The notes under the pieces: generated by a model
The model's database searches: none
The model's input: the letters and a program-made list of their open reading frames with translations, nothing else
What the model was told of the DNA's origin: nothing
Program-made: the position numbers and the translations under genes
In this document: positions 1 through 14,528 of the stretch, in pieces
Position numbering within the stretch: position 1 is the stretch's first letter
Layout: each line of letters begins with the position of its first letter
Source: an uncultured Marinoscillum sp.
GTDB taxonomy: Bacteria > Bacteroidota > Bacteroidia > Cytophagales > MED-G16
Assembly (NCBI GenBank): GCA_902633975.1
Contig: CACPHX010000001.1
Location: 46,572-110,571, forward strand
Reading direction: 5' to 3'
Length of the DNA stretch: 64,000 bases

Positions 1-124
1 CTAATGCAATTTTATATTCTTTCATATTTGATAGAATGAATTCCGAATTAACATATCCAAATTTTTGAGAAAAAACTATATGTGGAATTGATAATATAAT
101 AATAATTATGTTTCTTTTGATCAT
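1..124 (-). CDS. OmpH/Skp-family periplasmic chaperone, N-terminal fragment (gene runs off the window start)
   Basis: Hand translation of the minus strand from the ATG at 124-122 gives MIKRNIIIIILSIPHIVFSQKFGYVNSEFILSNMKEYKIAL. This is a signal peptide followed by an OmpH-like opening. The start overlaps the bamA stop (ATGA). bamA followed by ompH is the usual Bacteroidota order. It is absent from the ORF track because there is no stop in the window. Confidence 0.55.
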   Translation of the reverse strand, partial: MIKRNIIIIILSIPHIVFSQKFGYVNSEFILSNMKEYKIAL

Positions 125-2943
125 CTTAATTGAGTTCCAATTGAAAAATGAAATTGGGATCCTGATATATTAGGCTGTCCTTGTAGTTTATCAAACCCGT
201 ATCCCCAATCTATTCCTAATAATCCAAAAGCAGGCATAAATATTCTAACACCAATTCCAGCAGATCTTTTCAAATCAAACGGATTGAAATCTTTTTGTGA
301 GTTCCAGTTATTTCCAGCTTCAATAAACGATAAAGCATATATTGTTGCACTTGGATTTAATGATACTGGATGTCTGATTTCAAATACTAATTTATTATAT
401 ATGGTACCACCCCTAATGTTATTTATAATATCATATGGAACAAGAGAGTTATTTTCATAGCCCCTTAAGGCAATTCTTTCTGTACCAAGTAGAAAATTAC
501 TATAGGATCCTGAAAGTCCATCTCCACCAAGATAAAATCTTTCAAAAGGACCAATTTTATCTTCCCCTGAGAATGAACCAATGTATCCTAAGTGTGCTCT
601 AGATTCAAGTACAAGATCTCCTATAATTTTTGTATAGAATTTTGCATCAAACATCCATTTATGATATTCTGCCCATTTGTATTTTTCTTTTGGTGTAGCA
701 GTTTCATAATTTAAATTGTTCCATTTTGAATAGGGAGGTGTAACAGCAATATCAAGAGAAAACATAGAGCCACCTCTTGGAAACATTGGGTTATCAATGC
801 TATTTCTAGATATATTTGTTTTGAAAGCAAATGTATTTGTTATTCCAGTATCAAAACCTAAAGACTGTCCAAAATTAAATAAGTCATAATTATAGTATAC
901 TAAAGAATTTGATATTACAAAAAAATCATCTGGCCAATTTACTCTTCTTCCTAAACCTAGTGTTACTGCGTGTATTTTCATAGATCCAATAATTTTGCTG
1001 TCTCTGGTTGATTGATTTCCGTAACCATAACCTCCATAACCGTAACCTCCATAACCATAACCACCGTATCCTCCGTAGCCTCCATAACCACCGTATCCTC
1101 CATAACCACCGTATCCTCCATAACCACCGTATCCTCCGTAGCCACCGTATCCCCCAAATGGATTGTATCTTCCACTTCCATAAAAATCCAGCATCCTATT
1201 AATTGAATAACTATAGTTGATGCTAAAATTATTCGGTTTTCTACCACCAAGCCAGGGTTCAGAAAATGTAAAAGAGTAAGTTTGAAACTGGCGTCCATTT
1301 GCTTGTACTCTCAGCGAGAGTTTTTGGCCATCACCCACTGGGAGTGGTTTCCACTTTTTAAAGTCTGAAATATTCTTAACAGAGAAGTTGCTAAAACTTA
1401 GGCCAACAGTTCCAACAAATCCAAAATAACCACCCCATCCTCCTGAAAGTTCAACTTGATCACTTGGTTTTTCTTGAAGTTCCCAAGTTATATCTACGGT
1501 TTCATTTTGCGGGTTAGGAAGAGGGATTGGATTTATACTTTCAGGGTCAAAGTAACCTAATTGTGATAATTCTCTTTGAGTCCTAATTAATTCTGACCTA
1601 TTATACTTTTGTCCTGGTATTGTTCTTAGTTCTCTTCTAATTACATGATCGCTTGTTCTGTCATTACCTTTAATAAATACTTTATTTATAGTTGCTTGTG
1701 CACCTTCATATATTCTCATCTCTATATCAACCGAATCACCAATAACACCAACTTCAATTGGTTGTATATTTGAAAAAAGATAGCCATTATCTTGATACAA
1801 TGAAGAAACATCAGAGCCCTTGGGGTTATAAGTTATTTTTTTTTCGAGTGTTTCTGTATCGTATACATCTCCCTTTGAAATTGCAAGTACTTCATTTAAA
1901 ACCTCTTTATTATAGATGTAGTTTCCTGTCCAGTTAATATTTCTAAAATAATATTTTCTTCCTGGATCTATCCTTAACTCAATGTCAACATAATCACCAT
2001 TTCTTACAATGTCTTCATCAATGATTTTAATATCTCTATAGCCTTTAGATTCGTAGAATGATATTAAATTTTCTTTATCGTTTTTAAACTCCTTTTCAAT
2101 AAATTTACTTGATTTAAGGAAGTTTATTTTTGCATTATCAGTAATGAATTCAATAGATTTATTCTTATCTATTCCTTCTTTTTCTGCAAACAGATTCTTA
2201 GGTTTTAATAAGTTTATACTTCTTTTGAATATCTCTTTAAAAATTGTTAACCTAACTCTTTCCCCACTTTTTTTAAGTTTGCCCTTTAATTTTGCATCAG
2301 AAAACTCTTTATTTCCTTCAAATTTGACATTATCAATTTTTACTTTTTTATTCCTCTCAACTGTAATGTTTAATTTAATGCTATTGGCAACTATAGAGTC
2401 TTCTATTTGTTGAATCGTCACTTCTGTATTAAAAAAACCTTTCTTATTATAAAAGTTTTTTATAATGTTTTGTGTGTTTTTAATTGTCGCATCAGTAACT
2501 ATTCTTCCCCTTATCAAATTAAGTTTTTCAGTTAATTCAGATTTCTGGGTTTTTCCAATTCCTATTATTTCAAACGTACTTAATCTTGGCCTTTCAGTTA
2601 AGTTGATTAATAAATATACCTTGTCTCCATCAATTTTTTTTATTGATATTTTTATATCACCGATAATTCCTTGCTTCCACAATTTTTTAATTGCACCTGA
2701 AATTGCTTCTCCTGGAATTGATATTTCATCTCCGATTTTTATTCCAGCTAATGATTTTAGAGCAATTTCATCTAAATACTTTTCACCTTCTATGTCTATT
2801 TCAGCAACAACATATTTTTTTGGATTTGTATAGCTAATAGCAATCTGTTCATCATTAGCATTCATATTATATCGAATCTGAGCGTATGCATGATTTAATA
2901 ATATTGGTAGCAGAAGCAAAACAACTAAAAATATTTTTTTCAT
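121..2943 (-). CDS. bamA: Outer membrane protein assembly factor BamA (POTRA repeats plus Omp85 beta-barrel) with a Gly/Tyr low-complexity insertion
   Basis: ORF 121..2997. The likely true start is the internal MKKIFLVVLLLLPILL signal peptide at 2943, 4 nt after the uppS stop. The N-terminal half is POTRA-like and the C-terminal half is an Omp85-type barrel ending in ...FHFSIGTQLR. It sits in the conserved position downstream of uppS. Confidence 0.9.
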   Translation of the reverse strand: MKKIFLVVLLLLPILLNHAYAQIRYNMNANDEQIAISYTNPKKYVVAEIDIEGEKYLDEIALKSLAGIKIGDEISIPGEAISGAIKKLWKQGIIGDIKISIKKIDGDKVYLLINLTERPRLSTFEIIGIGKTQKSELTEKLNLIRGRIVTDATIKNTQNIIKNFYNKKGFFNTEVTIQQIEDSIVANSIKLNITVERNKKVKIDNVKFEGNKEFSDAKLKGKLKKSGERVRLTIFKEIFKRSINLLKPKNLFAEKEGIDKNKSIEFITDNAKINFLKSSKFIEKEFKNDKENLISFYESKGYRDIKIIDEDIVRNGDYVDIELRIDPGRKYYFRNINWTGNYIYNKEVLNEVLAISKGDVYDTETLEKKITYNPKGSDVSSLYQDNGYLFSNIQPIEVGVIGDSVDIEMRIYEGAQATINKVFIKGNDRTSDHVIRRELRTIPGQKYNRSELIRTQRELSQLGYFDPESINPIPLPNPQNETVDITWELQEKPSDQVELSGGWGGYFGFVGTVGLSFSNFSVKNISDFKKWKPLPVGDGQKLSLRVQANGRQFQTYSFTFSEPWLGGRKPNNFSINYSYSINRMLDFYGSGRYNPFGGYGGYGGYGGYGGYGGYGGYGGYGGYGGYGGYGYGGYGYGGYGYGNQSTRDSKIIGSMKIHAVTLGLGRRVNWPDDFFVISNSLVYYNYDLFNFGQSLGFDTGITNTFAFKTNISRNSIDNPMFPRGGSMFSLDIAVTPPYSKWNNLNYETATPKEKYKWAEYHKWMFDAKFYTKIIGDLVLESRAHLGYIGSFSGEDKIGPFERFYLGGDGLSGSYSNFLLGTERIALRGYENNSLVPYDIINNIRGGTIYNKLVFEIRHPVSLNPSATIYALSFIEAGNNWNSQKDFNPFDLKRSAGIGVRIFMPAFGLLGIDWGYGFDKLQGQPNISGSQFHFSIGTQLR
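1018..1155 (-). repeat. Coding tandem repeat inside bamA: 46 codons that are only Gly or Tyr (11 x GGY, then GY-GGY-GY-GGY-GY-G)
   Basis: Codon-by-codon reading of 1018-1155 gives 30 Gly and 16 Tyr. The 18-nt unit tccataaccaccgtatcc is repeated exactly three times at 1081-1134. Confidence 0.95.
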
Positions 2944-2947
2944 CAAT

Positions 2948-3655
2948 TTAGACTTTTCCAAATCTTCTATTCCTTTTATTAAACTCGAAAATAGCATTAT
3001 TTAATTCTTTTTTATTAAAATCTGGCCATAAAATATCTGTAAAATATAATTCTGTATATGCAGTTTGCCATAAATAAAAATTACTAATTCTTTGCTCTCC
3101 ACTAGTCCTTATTAATAGTTCTGGATCTGGGATATTAGATGTAGAAAGATATTTTTCAAAATCTTTTTCGTTAAAGTTCTTTAAAATGTTATTATTTTTT
3201 AATCTTATTATGCTTTTTACTGCGTTCTGTATGTCCCACCTACCTGAATAATTAATCGCCATAATTAGATTAAGACCTTTGTTTTCTTTTGTTAGTGTTT
3301 TTATTTTTTCAATACTTTCAATAGTTTTTTTAGGTAACTCATTTATTTCTCCAATACATCTAAACTTTATATTTTTATCCATTAAATTATTAGCTTCATC
3401 ATTAATTACAACGTCTAGCAGAGACATTAAAGCACTTACTTCAATTTTAGGTCGGGACCAATTTTCGGTAGAAAATGCAAAAAGGCTCAGATATTTTATT
3501 TTATTTTCTAAACAGAACTCAATACATTCTTTAACACTTTTTTTTGCATGGATATGGCCTTTTATTCTGGTCTTATTTCTTTTTTCAGCCCACCTGCCAT
3601 TACCATCCATTATTATGGCTATATGCTTTAGTTTATTTTTTTGTTTAGAATCCAT
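2948..3655 (-). CDS. uppS: Undecaprenyl-diphosphate synthase (cis-isoprenyl transferase)
   Basis: HIAIIMDGNGRWA motif, ...RTSGEQRISNFYLWQ..YTELYF motif, 235 aa. Confidence 0.93.
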   Translation of the reverse strand: MDSKQKNKLKHIAIIMDGNGRWAEKRNKTRIKGHIHAKKSVKECIEFCLENKIKYLSLFAFSTENWSRPKIEVSALMSLLDVVINDEANNLMDKNIKFRCIGEINELPKKTIESIEKIKTLTKENKGLNLIMAINYSGRWDIQNAVKSIIRLKNNNILKNFNEKDFEKYLSTSNIPDPELLIRTSGEQRISNFYLWQTAYTELYFTDILWPDFNKKELNNAIFEFNKRNRRFGKV

Positions 3656-3663
3656 ACGTAAAG

Positions 3664-4413
3664 TTAGTATATACTATTGATTGGTGCAGAATCTTTTGGA
3701 CAAGGAATTCTGTAAAAAATATAACTGATACTTATTCCTGTAAAGTAGTAAAAGTCTTTATCGTTACCGCTACCATATTGATAATTCTTACTAAAGTTCT
3801 GAATGTTACTATTAGGAAGGTTTAATCCAGTTATATTATCAATATCACTAGTGTTGGCACCATTGGTTAAATCAAAGTCATCGTTAAATGTTTTTTTTAT
3901 TTCAAACTCAAAAGCTACTGAAAATTGTTTATTAATTAAATATTTAAAACCCATACCAAATGGTATGTTAATTAATAATTTCTTGTTTTTGTCTAGTGAG
4001 TTATTTCTTTCGTAAGTGTTTTTTAATAATGTAGATCCTAGTCCCATAAATAGATATGGTGTAAAGTTTTTTTTATTGATCTCATCGAAGTAGTTTAGAA
4101 AATTATATTCAAATTTTAGTGAAATCTCAGAAAATTTTGCCTTAAACCACATATTTCTATTTGATGAGAGATTGTCGTTAATCCTTTCACTACCTTTTAA
4201 ATTTCCTCTTTTATATGAAAATTTAAAAGTTTGGTGTGAGCTTATATTGAATCTGTTAAAAATTTCAAGTCCCATTGATCCGTCTGACAGACTATATCCT
4301 CTTTTAAGGTCACCAGAGTAACTATTAATACCAATACTAATTCCTGGTTCTAAAAATTGAGAGAATCCATTAATTGCAAATAGATAAAAAATTATAATTA
4401 TTTTGAATTTCAT
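3664..4413 (-). CDS. Outer-membrane beta-barrel protein of unknown function (DUF6089-like by position between nadK and uppS)
   Basis: Signal peptide MKFKIIIIFYLFAINGFSQ, alternating beta-strand-like pattern and an aromatic C-terminus. The family name is recalled from conserved flavobacterial synteny and was not searched. Confidence 0.5.
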   Translation of the reverse strand: MKFKIIIIFYLFAINGFSQFLEPGISIGINSYSGDLKRGYSLSDGSMGLEIFNRFNISSHQTFKFSYKRGNLKGSERINDNLSSNRNMWFKAKFSEISLKFEYNFLNYFDEINKKNFTPYLFMGLGSTLLKNTYERNNSLDKNKKLLINIPFGMGFKYLINKQFSVAFEFEIKKTFNDDFDLTNGANTSDIDNITGLNLPNSNIQNFSKNYQYGSGNDKDFYYFTGISISYIFYRIPCPKDSAPINSIY

Positions 4414-12563: not shown

Positions 12564-14528
12564 TTAATTATTATTAAAGAATCTTTCCTCATCACCAGCT
12601 TGATCTTCATCAATAAATTCATAGCTTGTAACTTTAAACTCAGTCCTTCTATTAATTTGATGTTCTTCTTCTGTTTGCGCATTTGTAATTAATAGTTGTG
12701 ATTCTCCGTACCCTTTAGCAATAATTCTATCCTTATTTATTCCTTTATCAATTATGTAAGACACTGCTGACTCAGCTCTTCTTTGAGATAAATCTTGATT
12801 ATAGTCAACAGATGCCCTATCATCCGTATGTGAACTTAATTCAATAGAAATAGATGGATTGTCTCTCATAATAACAACTAATTTATTTAATTCTACAGCA
12901 GCATCAGGTCGAATATCAGATTTGTCTAGATCGTAGTAAATATTATCAAGGAGAATAGCTTTATTCATAACTATTTTATCAAGCACTAAATTTTTTTCAA
13001 ATTCTACTTCAGTTATAAATTCCTTTAATTTGGATTTATCTAGAGATTTCCCAATAGTTGAAAAAATACCTCTCGTATTGAAATAATTTTCCTTCTCCCC
13101 AATCAAAATATAATCTTCTTCAGAATATACTTTGAACTCAAAATTACCATTATTATCTGTGAATGTTTCGTCAATTAAATTCTCGTCTTTATTTAAAAGC
13201 TTTACAACACTGTTCCCAAGAATTTCTAAATCTTCACTATCACCCTTAGGAGTTAGAGTTGATCCTTTTAGTGTATAATTAACAATTTTTAGATTAGGAT
13301 CATTATTAACAAAGGTGTATATATCATCGTCCCCCTTACCTCCAGATCTGTTTGATGTAAAAAATCCTCTTGTTGGATTAAATGGATTTACTCCAAAATC
13401 GTCCCCAGTTGAATTCAACGGCTTACCAGGATTTAAAATTTTAATTTCTCCACCAAACCTTGTAGCTACAAAAATATCCAAACCTCCAAAACCCTCATGA
13501 GTATCAGAAGAAAAGTATAATCTGCCGTCATCTGTTACTGATGGAAAAACTTCATTTCCTTCTGTATTAATTTCAGATCCAAGATTTTGAATATTTATCC
13601 ATCTGCCTCTTCTGTTAAGATTTGCTTTATATATATCCGTCCCACCAAACCCTTTATCTCTATTTGATGCGAAATAAAGAGTTTTGCCATCTTTTGTCAG
13701 AAAAGGAGTGGAGTCCCAGCTTCTGCTAGTATTTACATTAAGTAATCTAGGGTTTGTCCAAGTGCCTCTTCTGTATCTTGAAAAATAAAGATCAACATTA
13801 TTTCTTCCAGAACTTTTTCCATTATTTCCTTTTGCAAAAATCATGTATGTACCATCTTCAGAAAATGTTATAGATCCCTCATTAACATCTTCATTATTTA
13901 TGTTTTCGTTAAGTCTTTTCAAAGTACCTAATTCAACATTCGCTCCTTTTGTAACTACTTCGAATAAATCAGTAAATGGTGTACCAGTTCCTTTATAAAT
14001 TTTTTCCGTTAATCTGTTGGAGACAAAATATAATTTGCCATTAGAGTAAGATGGTGCATAATCAGCGTAACTTGTGTTAATAGCTTGAAGATTTTTTACT
14101 TTATAAAAACTAGTATCTGGATATTTTTTGAGATTGGAAATATAAACTGATTCATTTTGTACCAATTTAATTATTTCTTCGTTTTGTCCAGAAAGTATAT
14201 ATTTTTTTGCTATTGAATCTGCTACATTATATTTATTATTTGCTTTCAGTGATAGAATTAAGTAATAATAAGCCATTTCGTTGTTTAAACCTTGTTCAAT
14301 ACTTTTCAGATAATATTTTTCTGATTCATATATTTGATTAGATTTTCTATATGCTTCAGCTATTAAAAAATTAGTTTTTGGGTCATTCTCTTTTACAACC
14401 TTTTCAAACTTTTTTGCTGCATTATTATATTCAGCATTATTAAAACTTTTTAATGCAGATCTTTTATTAATACATGATTTTAAAAAAATTGATACTATAA
14501 CAAATAATAAAATATTTTTTGTTTTCAT
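12564..14528 (-). CDS. OmpA-family peptidoglycan-associated protein with N-terminal TPR-like region and TolB-like beta-propeller repeats
   Basis: Signal/lipobox-like N-terminus. Repeated ...YFSS/YFAS... WD40-like (TolB-type) units. C-terminal OmpA-like domain (HTDDRASVDYNQDLSQRRAESAVSYI ... NRRTEF). Confidence 0.8.
   Translation of the reverse strand: MKTKNILLFVIVSIFLKSCINKRSALKSFNNAEYNNAAKKFEKVVKENDPKTNFLIAEAYRKSNQIYESEKYYLKSIEQGLNNEMAYYYLILSLKANNKYNVADSIAKKYILSGQNEEIIKLVQNESVYISNLKKYPDTSFYKVKNLQAINTSYADYAPSYSNGKLYFVSNRLTEKIYKGTGTPFTDLFEVVTKGANVELGTLKRLNENINNEDVNEGSITFSEDGTYMIFAKGNNGKSSGRNNVDLYFSRYRRGTWTNPRLLNVNTSRSWDSTPFLTKDGKTLYFASNRDKGFGGTDIYKANLNRRGRWINIQNLGSEINTEGNEVFPSVTDDGRLYFSSDTHEGFGGLDIFVATRFGGEIKILNPGKPLNSTGDDFGVNPFNPTRGFFTSNRSGGKGDDDIYTFVNNDPNLKIVNYTLKGSTLTPKGDSEDLEILGNSVVKLLNKDENLIDETFTDNNGNFEFKVYSEEDYILIGEKENYFNTRGIFSTIGKSLDKSKLKEFITEVEFEKNLVLDKIVMNKAILLDNIYYDLDKSDIRPDAAVELNKLVVIMRDNPSISIELSSHTDDRASVDYNQDLSQRRAESAVSYIIDKGINKDRIIAKGYGESQLLITNAQTEEEHQINRRTEFKVTSYEFIDEDQAGDEERFFNNN

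Follow-up and report, generated by a model that had tools for sequence, protein, structure and literature searches.

A tandem-repeat-coded glycine/tyrosine tract in the predicted extracellular loop 3 of BamA from marine Marinoscillum-type Cytophagales

The window analyzed here, a stretch of 64,000 nucleotides from contig CACPHX010000001.1 of an uncultured Marinoscillum sp., carries on its minus strand the bamA gene for the outer-membrane insertase BamA, in which 46 consecutive residues (positions 1018–1155) consist of only glycine and tyrosine and fall, by alignment and structure prediction, in extracellular loop 3 (EL3) of the barrel. Long tyrosine-rich loops of low complexity are already known at this site in Bacteroidota from studies of 2021 and 2025. 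What is new is the strict GGY periodicity, the coding by a tandem repeat whose units are species-specific, and the presence of the loop in a clade of marine Cytophagales with loop-less relatives, together with an apparent length polymorphism of the GGY tract. Overall, the most probable explanation is a lineage-specific, extreme version of the Tyr-rich EL3 that is coded by a slippage-prone repeat and maintained by selection.

The Gly/Tyr tract and its place in BamA

The tract is the longest run of Gly and Tyr in its open reading frame (ORF) and comprises 30 Gly and 16 Tyr, arranged as 11 x GGY followed by GY-GGY-GY-GGY-GY-G, between the flanks ...LDFYGSGRYNPF and NQSTRDSKIIGSMKIH. It spans residues 597–642 counted from the start at 2943, or 615–660 of the 958-residue ORF, and its codons are exclusively GGN or TAY. 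The 18-nucleotide unit tccataaccaccgtatcc, in coding sense GGA GGA TAC GGT GGT TAT, is present in exactly three copies, at 1081, 1099, and 1117 (1081–1134 altogether), inside a minus-strand core of 59 nucleotides (1079–1137) that is perfectly periodic at 18 nucleotides, and Tandem Repeats Finder gave periods of 9, 18, and 27 for the tract. All of this agrees with the composition, pattern, flanks, and triple repeat described in the initial annotation of this DNA. Because Gly and Tyr together make up 13% of the remaining protein, the probability of a 46-residue run at a given site is P ~1e-41, and a chance origin is excluded. The GC content of the tract is 52%, as opposed to 30% for the gene and the window.

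Two other accounts of the tract were considered at the level of the window and set aside. A six-frame scan of the 64 kb detected no second G/aromatic-rich tract comparable to that of BamA, and a genome-wide compositional habit was, within this range, rejected. An RNA-level explanation was dropped, since the Rfam scan of the window returned two tRNAs only and no RNA family at the tract. A minus-strand ORF of 106 residues at 978–1298, with the repeated motif MEDTVVM (…EDTVVMEDTVVMEDTVVM…), is no gene but a by-product, in another frame, of the periodicity of the DNA; truncated proteins in the databases, P0082 among them, show the same wrong reading frame.

The host protein is BamA, as initially annotated. 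It aligns end to end with BamA homologues, and Pfam recognized five POTRA stretches (E = 8e-43) followed by Omp85 (E = 1.6e-25, residues 537–938). A sequence search of the PDB returned Bacteroidota BamA only, namely, 9n2d of F. johnsoniae, 9hj3/9hiv, and 9hjm, of which we attribute 9hj3/9hiv to B. thetaiotaomicron and 9hjm to P. gingivalis via the paper of Silale et al. (PMC12578637). The best Foldseek matches were 9n2f, 9n2d, and 9hiv (E = 1e-49 to 4e-59), followed by BamA of E. coli and Neisseria. The L6 motif, defined as (V/L)RG(F/Y) (PMC12611786), reads LRGY (L826 R827 G828 Y829), and in an alignment of 68 sequences R827, G828, and Y829 are invariant and L826 is nearly so. The identification is completed by the 16-strand fold and by the locus (both below).

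The position of the tract was derived from an AlphaFold2 model built on the same 68-sequence alignment (mean predicted local distance difference test score, pLDDT, of 70), with strands assigned by DSSP. The model comprises a periplasmic POTRA region (1480–2820, minus strand, residues ~42–488), delimited by the five Pfam stretches and the predicted secondary structure, and a 16-stranded Omp85 beta-barrel (136–1461, minus strand, residues 495–936). The tract lies between predicted strand beta5 (1186–1230, minus strand, residues 572–586, NFSINYSYSINRMLD) and predicted strand beta6 (934–996, minus strand, residues 650–670, KIIGSMKIHAVTLGLGRRVNW), in which L664, G665, and W670 are invariant among the homologues. 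In the PDB sequence alignment, beta5 matches the strand preceding EL3 in B. thetaiotaomicron BamA (9hj3/9hiv) and the tract stands opposite the B. thetaiotaomicron loop SSRYYNSSYFNNYYNSMYSGYGGYGMYNYGNYNNYENYYDPDK, while the BamA of F. johnsoniae is nearly devoid of residues there. Since strand 1 follows the periplasmic POTRA5, the connection between beta5 and beta6 is extracellular, so that both alignment and model place the tract in EL3, the loop to which it had been assigned initially. The loop so delimited measures 63 residues (997–1185, minus strand, residues 587–649) and is predicted to be intrinsically disordered: residues 591–647 have pLDDT values below 50 and no secondary structure in the model. 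The whole loop contains 2 Asn (N594 and N643), which is no enrichment. Directly N-terminal of the tract stands a ‘YNP[YF]’ motif (RYNPF, 1156–1173).

Distribution of the tract and turnover of its repeats

The source of the DNA had initially been taken for a member of Flavobacteriia, which the matches contradict. The best protein matches belong to Cytophagales (Cyclobacteriaceae, Reichenbachiella, Ekhidna, and Marinoscillum) at 49–56% identity, proteins from marine metagenomes form a tight group at 73–82% identity to the window BamA, and the nearest species-representative genomes are metagenome-assembled genomes (MAGs) and single-amplified genomes (SAGs) named ‘uncultured Marinoscillum sp.’, ‘Flammeovirgaceae bacterium’, or ‘Marinoscillaceae’. 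The closest relative is SAG AG-895-E03, with ~93% amino acid identity. Homologue and genome matches thus point to marine Cytophagales of the Marinoscillum/Flammeovirgaceae type.

As a proxy for EL3 length, the distance between the conserved anchors EPWxGG and PDD[FY]F was used. This distance was 43–44 residues, equivalent to a 4-residue hairpin, for the majority of the ~117 best homologues with both anchors, compared to 69–95 residues in the close clade and 103 in the window. Within the clade, a G/Y tract was found in every species-representative genome readable across or into the site and in 34 of 34 metagenome contigs (L081–L114), which had been recovered by matching a degenerate pattern to the flank downstream of the tract; none of the clade members sampled had lost it. 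Measured after the NP[FY] motif, the tracts range from 25 to 52 residues, and that of the window, with 47, is near the top of this range but not the longest. The comparison with orthologues proposed in the initial annotation therefore supports lineage specificity, with a long G/Y loop throughout the clade and a minimal hairpin in most other Cytophagales.

For more distant relatives, the beta5–beta6 segments were extracted by alignment from 106 full-length representatives of 50%-identity clusters. Their median length was 19 residues against 77 in the window, and Tyr-rich expansions were present in ~8 of the 106. The representative P0122, from an uncultured lineage, has a GGGY-type tract, and members of its cluster have segments of 99 and 102 residues; EL3 of rumen and gut Bacteroidales and of Paludibacteraceae is rich in Tyr, Asn, and Ser. 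A few Cytophagales (P0032, P0035, P0036, P0048; L014, L035, L074) carry a G/F- or G/N-rich insert in EL3, such as GGSGFGGGGFGGGGFGGRGGF, with Phe in place of Tyr in the Gly/Phe-rich ones, and in another lineage the site is occupied by a K/E-rich filler. Judged from these sequences, aromatic/Gly low complexity at EL3 is recurrent but patchy across Bacteroidota. The early caveat that such a tract might turn out common and invariant among BamA families thus holds in part: it recurs in several deep lineages of Bacteroidota, but it is not invariant.

The ‘YNP[YF]’ motif was also seen within the Tyr-rich EL3 of very distant Bacteroidota (L021, P0130, P0151, and P0187), for example as SGGYNPYGSSNYGGYNPY in L021. 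The shared motif hints at an old common core of EL3 rather than purely independent gains.

The repeat units differ between species. As opposed to the window unit given above, the unit is GGA GGT TAT GGT GGC TAY in L001, GGT GGA TAY in L005, GGT GGT TAC in L006, GGC GGC TAT in L022, and GGA GGA TAY in L072, whereas that of L002 contains ATG (GGM). Because each species has its own homogenized synonymous unit, slippage or exchange between units appears to be continuing. Tract length differs between contigs that share at least 97% identity over the 840 nucleotides downstream of it, pairwise alignments of conspecific contigs show single clean indels of 36, 9, 6, 3, and 9 nucleotides, and in proteins that are otherwise 99.3–100% identical the loop region measures 30, 35, 39, or 48 residues. 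The slippage-prone array suggested by the initial annotation is therefore supported by in-frame length variants among near-identical relatives, with the reservation that some of them may represent assembly collapse.

Such variants were also looked for in the window's own species. Here, the metagenome search recovered one conspecific contig only, L113 (MDTC01102608.1), which aligns to positions 1–3041 of the window at 99.57% identity, without gaps and with an equal tract length. As this is the only conspecific contig, the polymorphism is shown in sister species only. The 138-nucleotide tract (L113 3510–3647) holds 5 of the 13 mismatches between the two sequences, where ~0.6 would be expected; none of the five changes the amino acid (TAC/TAT, GGA/GGC). 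The excess suggests either exchange between repeat units or strain mixing in the assembly consensus. L113 presumably originates from an independent sample.

A side observation concerns L005 and L102, which are 99.9% identical over the 840 nucleotides downstream of the tract and yet differ in tract type, pure GGY versus GGL-containing, and in the residues just upstream of it, GSGRYNPY versus GTGGYNPYGYGGL. Either the two have recombined at the repeat, or an assembly is chimeric.

Published EL3 loops, related systems and gene neighborhood

The initial annotation knew of no such tract in the core insertase, which the literature corrects. In B. vulgatus, BamA eL3 has 44 residues compared to 12 in E. 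coli, 22 of the 44 are Tyr or Asn, and the loop was termed an unusual prokaryotic low-complexity region, according to Matano et al. (2021, mBio, PMC8546649). Their study also reports that bacteroidetocins kill Bacteroidales via BamA, with resistance located at an Asp where eL3 begins and in neighboring loops, and that sensitivity to bacteroidetocin A is set in Bacteroidales by this Asp. Silale et al. (2025, Nat Microbiol, PMC12578637) described as ‘striking’ the EL3 of B. thetaiotaomicron (38 residues, 13 Tyr) and of P. gingivalis (39 residues, 12 Tyr), assigned the former to beta5–beta6 with no cryo-EM density, found Tyr, Gly, and Asn enriched in Bacteroidota EL3 across 861 homologues, and regarded the B. 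thetaiotaomicron loop as probably projecting into the surface-lipoprotein dome. Their preprint treats the Tyr-rich EL3 as what most clearly sets Bacteroidota BamA apart from that of proteobacteria and implicates it in bacteroidetocin killing; its discussion likens the YG-rich EL3 to hydrogel domains of the FG/YG kind, as in nuclear pores and peroxisomal importers, and speculates on a role in surface-lipoprotein export. A full-text literature search found no further paper on Tyr-rich EL3 beyond Matano 2021 and Silale 2025 with its preprint.

The loop of the window resembles these Bacteroidales loops (9hiv/9hj3, 9hjm, and B. vulgatus) in protein, phylum, and beta5–beta6 position, and in its low complexity with abundant Tyr and Gly, and both far exceed the 12-residue loop of E. 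coli. Disorder is indicated on different grounds, by absent cryo-EM density in Bacteroidales and by predicted pLDDT values below 50 in the window. The Bacteroidales loops are irregular, rich in Tyr, Asn, and Ser, and 38–44 residues long, whereas the 63 residues of the window loop are built around an Asn-free and strictly periodic GGY core, so that the published enrichment in Tyr, Gly, and Asn is matched on Tyr and Gly only. Moreover, the window loop is coded by a tandem repeat of 9/18 nucleotides, which goes unmentioned for the Bacteroidales loops in the portions of the papers considered, the comparison being with their descriptions and not with their DNA. Its length differs among close relatives, and the nearest Cytophagales relatives of the clade are without the expansion.

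A close counterpart in a cultured species is EL3 of P. cangingivalis BamA (e.g., WP_025837492.1), PMYGGYGYGGYPGYGYGGYPGAYGYGGYGGYNYGGYGYGYD, which is nearly pure Gly/Tyr over ~40 residues. In contrast to the tract of the window, it is broken by Pro, Ala, and Asn, its spacing is irregular, and its flanks are of the Bacteroidales type (YDPDR). The loop was identical in 7 of the 8 cluster members examined, and the barrel shares ~47% identity with that of the window.

Outside bacteria, the FG-nucleoporin, PEX13 YG, and FUS-type [G/S]Y[G/S] domains are, like the window loop, disordered chains in which Gly separates the aromatic residues, but they are not homologous to it. [quoted passage not shown] Contingency loci, the phase-variable surface genes of pathogens, are alike in that the gene of a surface-exposed protein contains a tandem repeat whose copy number differs among close relatives. 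They differ in that the units of the window are multiples of 3 nucleotides and all intact contigs are in frame, so that at most the loop length would be modulated. Phase variation is excluded, as the units (9/18 nucleotides) and the conspecific indels (3, 6, 9, and 36 nucleotides) are all multiples of 3. The bamA gene is expected to be essential, and on/off switching of the window gene is for this reason not to be expected.

The bamA gene itself occupies positions 121–2943 of the minus strand (940 residues from the ATG at 2943, stop codon at 121–123). The longest ORF starts at 2997, encodes 958 residues, and overlaps the end of uppS by 50 nucleotides. The ATG at 2943 (MKKIF...) is the likely start, because M1 is nearly invariant in the homologue alignment and is followed by a signal-peptide-like N-terminus, MKKIFLVVLLLLPILLNHAYA. 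Directly upstream of bamA lies uppS for undecaprenyl diphosphate synthase (2948–3655, minus strand; Pfam Prenyltransf, E = 3e-83), preceded by a DUF6089 gene (3664–4413, minus strand; Pfam DUF6089, E = 1.7e-22). On the other side, the beginning of a probable skp/ompH-type gene (1–124, minus strand; MIKRNIIIIILSIPHIVFSQKFGYVNSEFILSNMKEYKIAL) was read directly from the DNA and runs off the window; its ATG overlaps the bamA stop codon (ATGA, 121–124), and we take it to be skp/ompH from its position and from what is generally known of such loci. The minus-strand order across 1–4413 is thus DUF6089, uppS, bamA, and the probable skp/ompH-like gene. With uppS upstream and the probable skp/ompH downstream, this is a canonical bamA locus, unlike those of TamA-type paralogues. 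In F. johnsoniae, bamA is flanked by porG and skpA, which are linked to the type IX secretion system (PMC12611786); the DUF6089 gene occupies the porG place of that locus, a likeness by position. According to Pfam on 40 ORFs of the window, the neighbors of bamA are all housekeeping genes. A few kb from bamA, at 12564–14528 of the minus strand, we also noted a 654-residue envelope protein with PD40 (TolB-like beta-propeller) repeats and a C-terminal OmpA domain.

Selection on the loop, possible function and alternatives

An important question is whether the G/Y composition of the loop is maintained or merely tolerated. Among 29 distinct tracts, 1,094 of 1,141 codons (95.9%) encode Gly or Tyr, and the others encode mainly Leu (19), Ser (12), Asn (9), and Met (3). 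The retention of ~96% G/Y while synonymous sites and units vary freely argues for purifying selection on the peptide and not on a DNA or RNA feature, and the persistence of a GC-rich tract in an AT-rich genome with no loss in the clade argues in the same direction. The five differences between the window and L113 inside the tract, synonymous throughout, agree with this. From the sequences, we infer that the G/Y composition of the peptide is under purifying selection.

A mechanism consistent with these data would be as follows. The array would expand and contract by replication slippage or unequal exchange between units, while purifying selection would hold the peptide as a G/Y polymer of ~25–50 residues. 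The resulting flexible chain, tethered to strands 5 and 6 in the N-terminal half of the barrel, would lie above the outer leaflet and beneath the extracellular canopy of BamG and BamH, a canopy reported as universal for Bacteroidota. In this place, it might make transient aromatic contacts of low specificity with nascent clients, such as emerging loops of outer-membrane proteins (OMPs) or exported surface lipoproteins, in the manner of the FG/YG ‘cohesive’ domains and as Silale et al. speculated for the loop of B. thetaiotaomicron. Such a client-contacting chain under the canopy is a tentative proposal by analogy. Its boldest form, in which (GGY)n would be a slippage-tuned cohesive ‘brush’ of the YG type at the exit of the BAM folding site, gating or chaperoning the passage of lipoproteins and OMP loops, is decidedly doubtful.

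Several observations weigh against this picture, some of them against the function and some against the repeat dynamics. EL3 is minimal in most of the Cytophagales relatives and in F. johnsoniae, and for that reason the loop does not belong to the core BAM mechanism. Silale et al. called the function of EL3 ‘unclear’ (PMC12578637). Pfam found no BamG-like FadL protein, BamH, or BamD among the 40 ORFs of the window. Homogenization of the array by slippage could by itself preserve some of the compositional purity. As for the assemblies, ~13 of the 34 contigs from metagenomes, and several from MAGs, stop within the tract; at the same place the MAG L003 has a frameshift, which we read as an assembly error, and one MAG is N-masked. 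Furthermore, 30 loop residues in the protein P0011 stand against 57 in L007 despite 100% identity elsewhere, which looks like a repeat collapse, and part of the length variation is probably due to such collapse.

Of the alternatives, a neutral origin survives best, although we consider it unlikely. In this case, EL3 would be a permissive site at which a GGY-coding microsatellite drifts in length as a filler without function. The minimal hairpin of most related BamA and of F. johnsoniae fits a loop that BAM generally can dispense with, as do the wide variation in tract length between and within species and the very different fillers (G/F, G/N, Y/N/S, and even K/E-rich) found at the same site in other lineages. 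Neutral drift, on the other hand, accounts poorly for the 96% G/Y kept across more than 20 species with differing synonymous sites and units, for replacements that are few and mostly Leu, Ser, Asn, or Met, and for a clade in which no member is without the tract. Gly codons are, moreover, compositionally costly at 30% GC, and Tyr-rich expansions recurring at this one loop in distant lineages speak for a shared advantage.

It is improbable that the loop is a variable shield or decoy that covers the BamA surface, or alters access to it, when phages, grazers, or peptide toxins target BamA, and that conflict of this kind maintains its length variation. The precedent is bacteroidetocin, with resistance at the Asp of the eL3 start and in neighboring loops (PMC8546649). 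In the window, an Asp (Asp586, 1186–1188, ‘MLDF’) stands at the boundary of strand 5 and EL3 and is kept throughout the clade (MLDF or QLDF), at a position equivalent only approximately, in the alignment, to the bacteroidetocin-determining Asp of Bacteroidales; tract length also differs among conspecific contigs. Nevertheless, only the length varies, and such a monotonous conserved sequence is unlike the typical targets of diversifying selection. The B. thetaiotaomicron loop, according to Silale et al., is probably inside the lipoprotein dome and not freely exposed, no BamA-using toxin or phage is known for the clade, and the apparent polymorphism is confounded by assembly errors.

An assembly artefact at a simple repeat, accounting for the tract or for its length, is hardly credible: public assemblies do break, frameshift, or become N-masked exactly here, and identical flanks come with very different lengths as in P0011 and L007, but the perfectly periodic stretch of the window (59 nucleotides) is estimated to be shorter than usual reads or k-mers, L113 has an equal length with different synonymous codons, and the ORF is in frame with flanks that align perfectly to homologues. 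The possibility of an artefact had been raised in the initial annotation, and L113, with its five synonymous differences, makes it unlikely. Comparably long tracts are also present in the GOS contig L097 and in the MAG L006 (‘LRMED-062’). GOS assemblies derive from Sanger reads; a long-read origin of L006 is suggested by ‘LRMED’ in its name alone. The long tracts are real despite the assembly breaks.

The repeat nonetheless has a practical consequence, as bamA is broken or corrupted by it in many of the group's public assemblies (MAGs, SAGs, and metagenomes), and the databases contain truncated or frameshifted ‘BamA’ as a result. Assemblies broken, frameshifted, or masked at the GGY repeat include L002, L003, L004, L010, L071, L072, L076, L077, and L079, and the proteins P0082, P0086, and P0088 are truncated or in the wrong frame at the repeat (…VDMEDTVDM).

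For the biology of Bacteroidota BamA, the clade offers the simplest natural EL3, a homopolymer-like (GGY)n of variable length that exists beside loop-less relatives. Its tracts point to the G/Y composition, rather than any particular sequence, as what selection acts on, and the distribution indicates that loops of the EL3 type were gained, or lost, repeatedly. They also provide design rules for loop swaps, namely, the composition, a range of ~25–50 residues, and the tolerance of Leu or Met for Tyr. If the cohesive brush were true, the loop would be a minimal bacterial analogue of the nucleoporin FG or PEX13 YG domains, and its natural length alleles could be used to dissect the role of EL3 in Bacteroidota.

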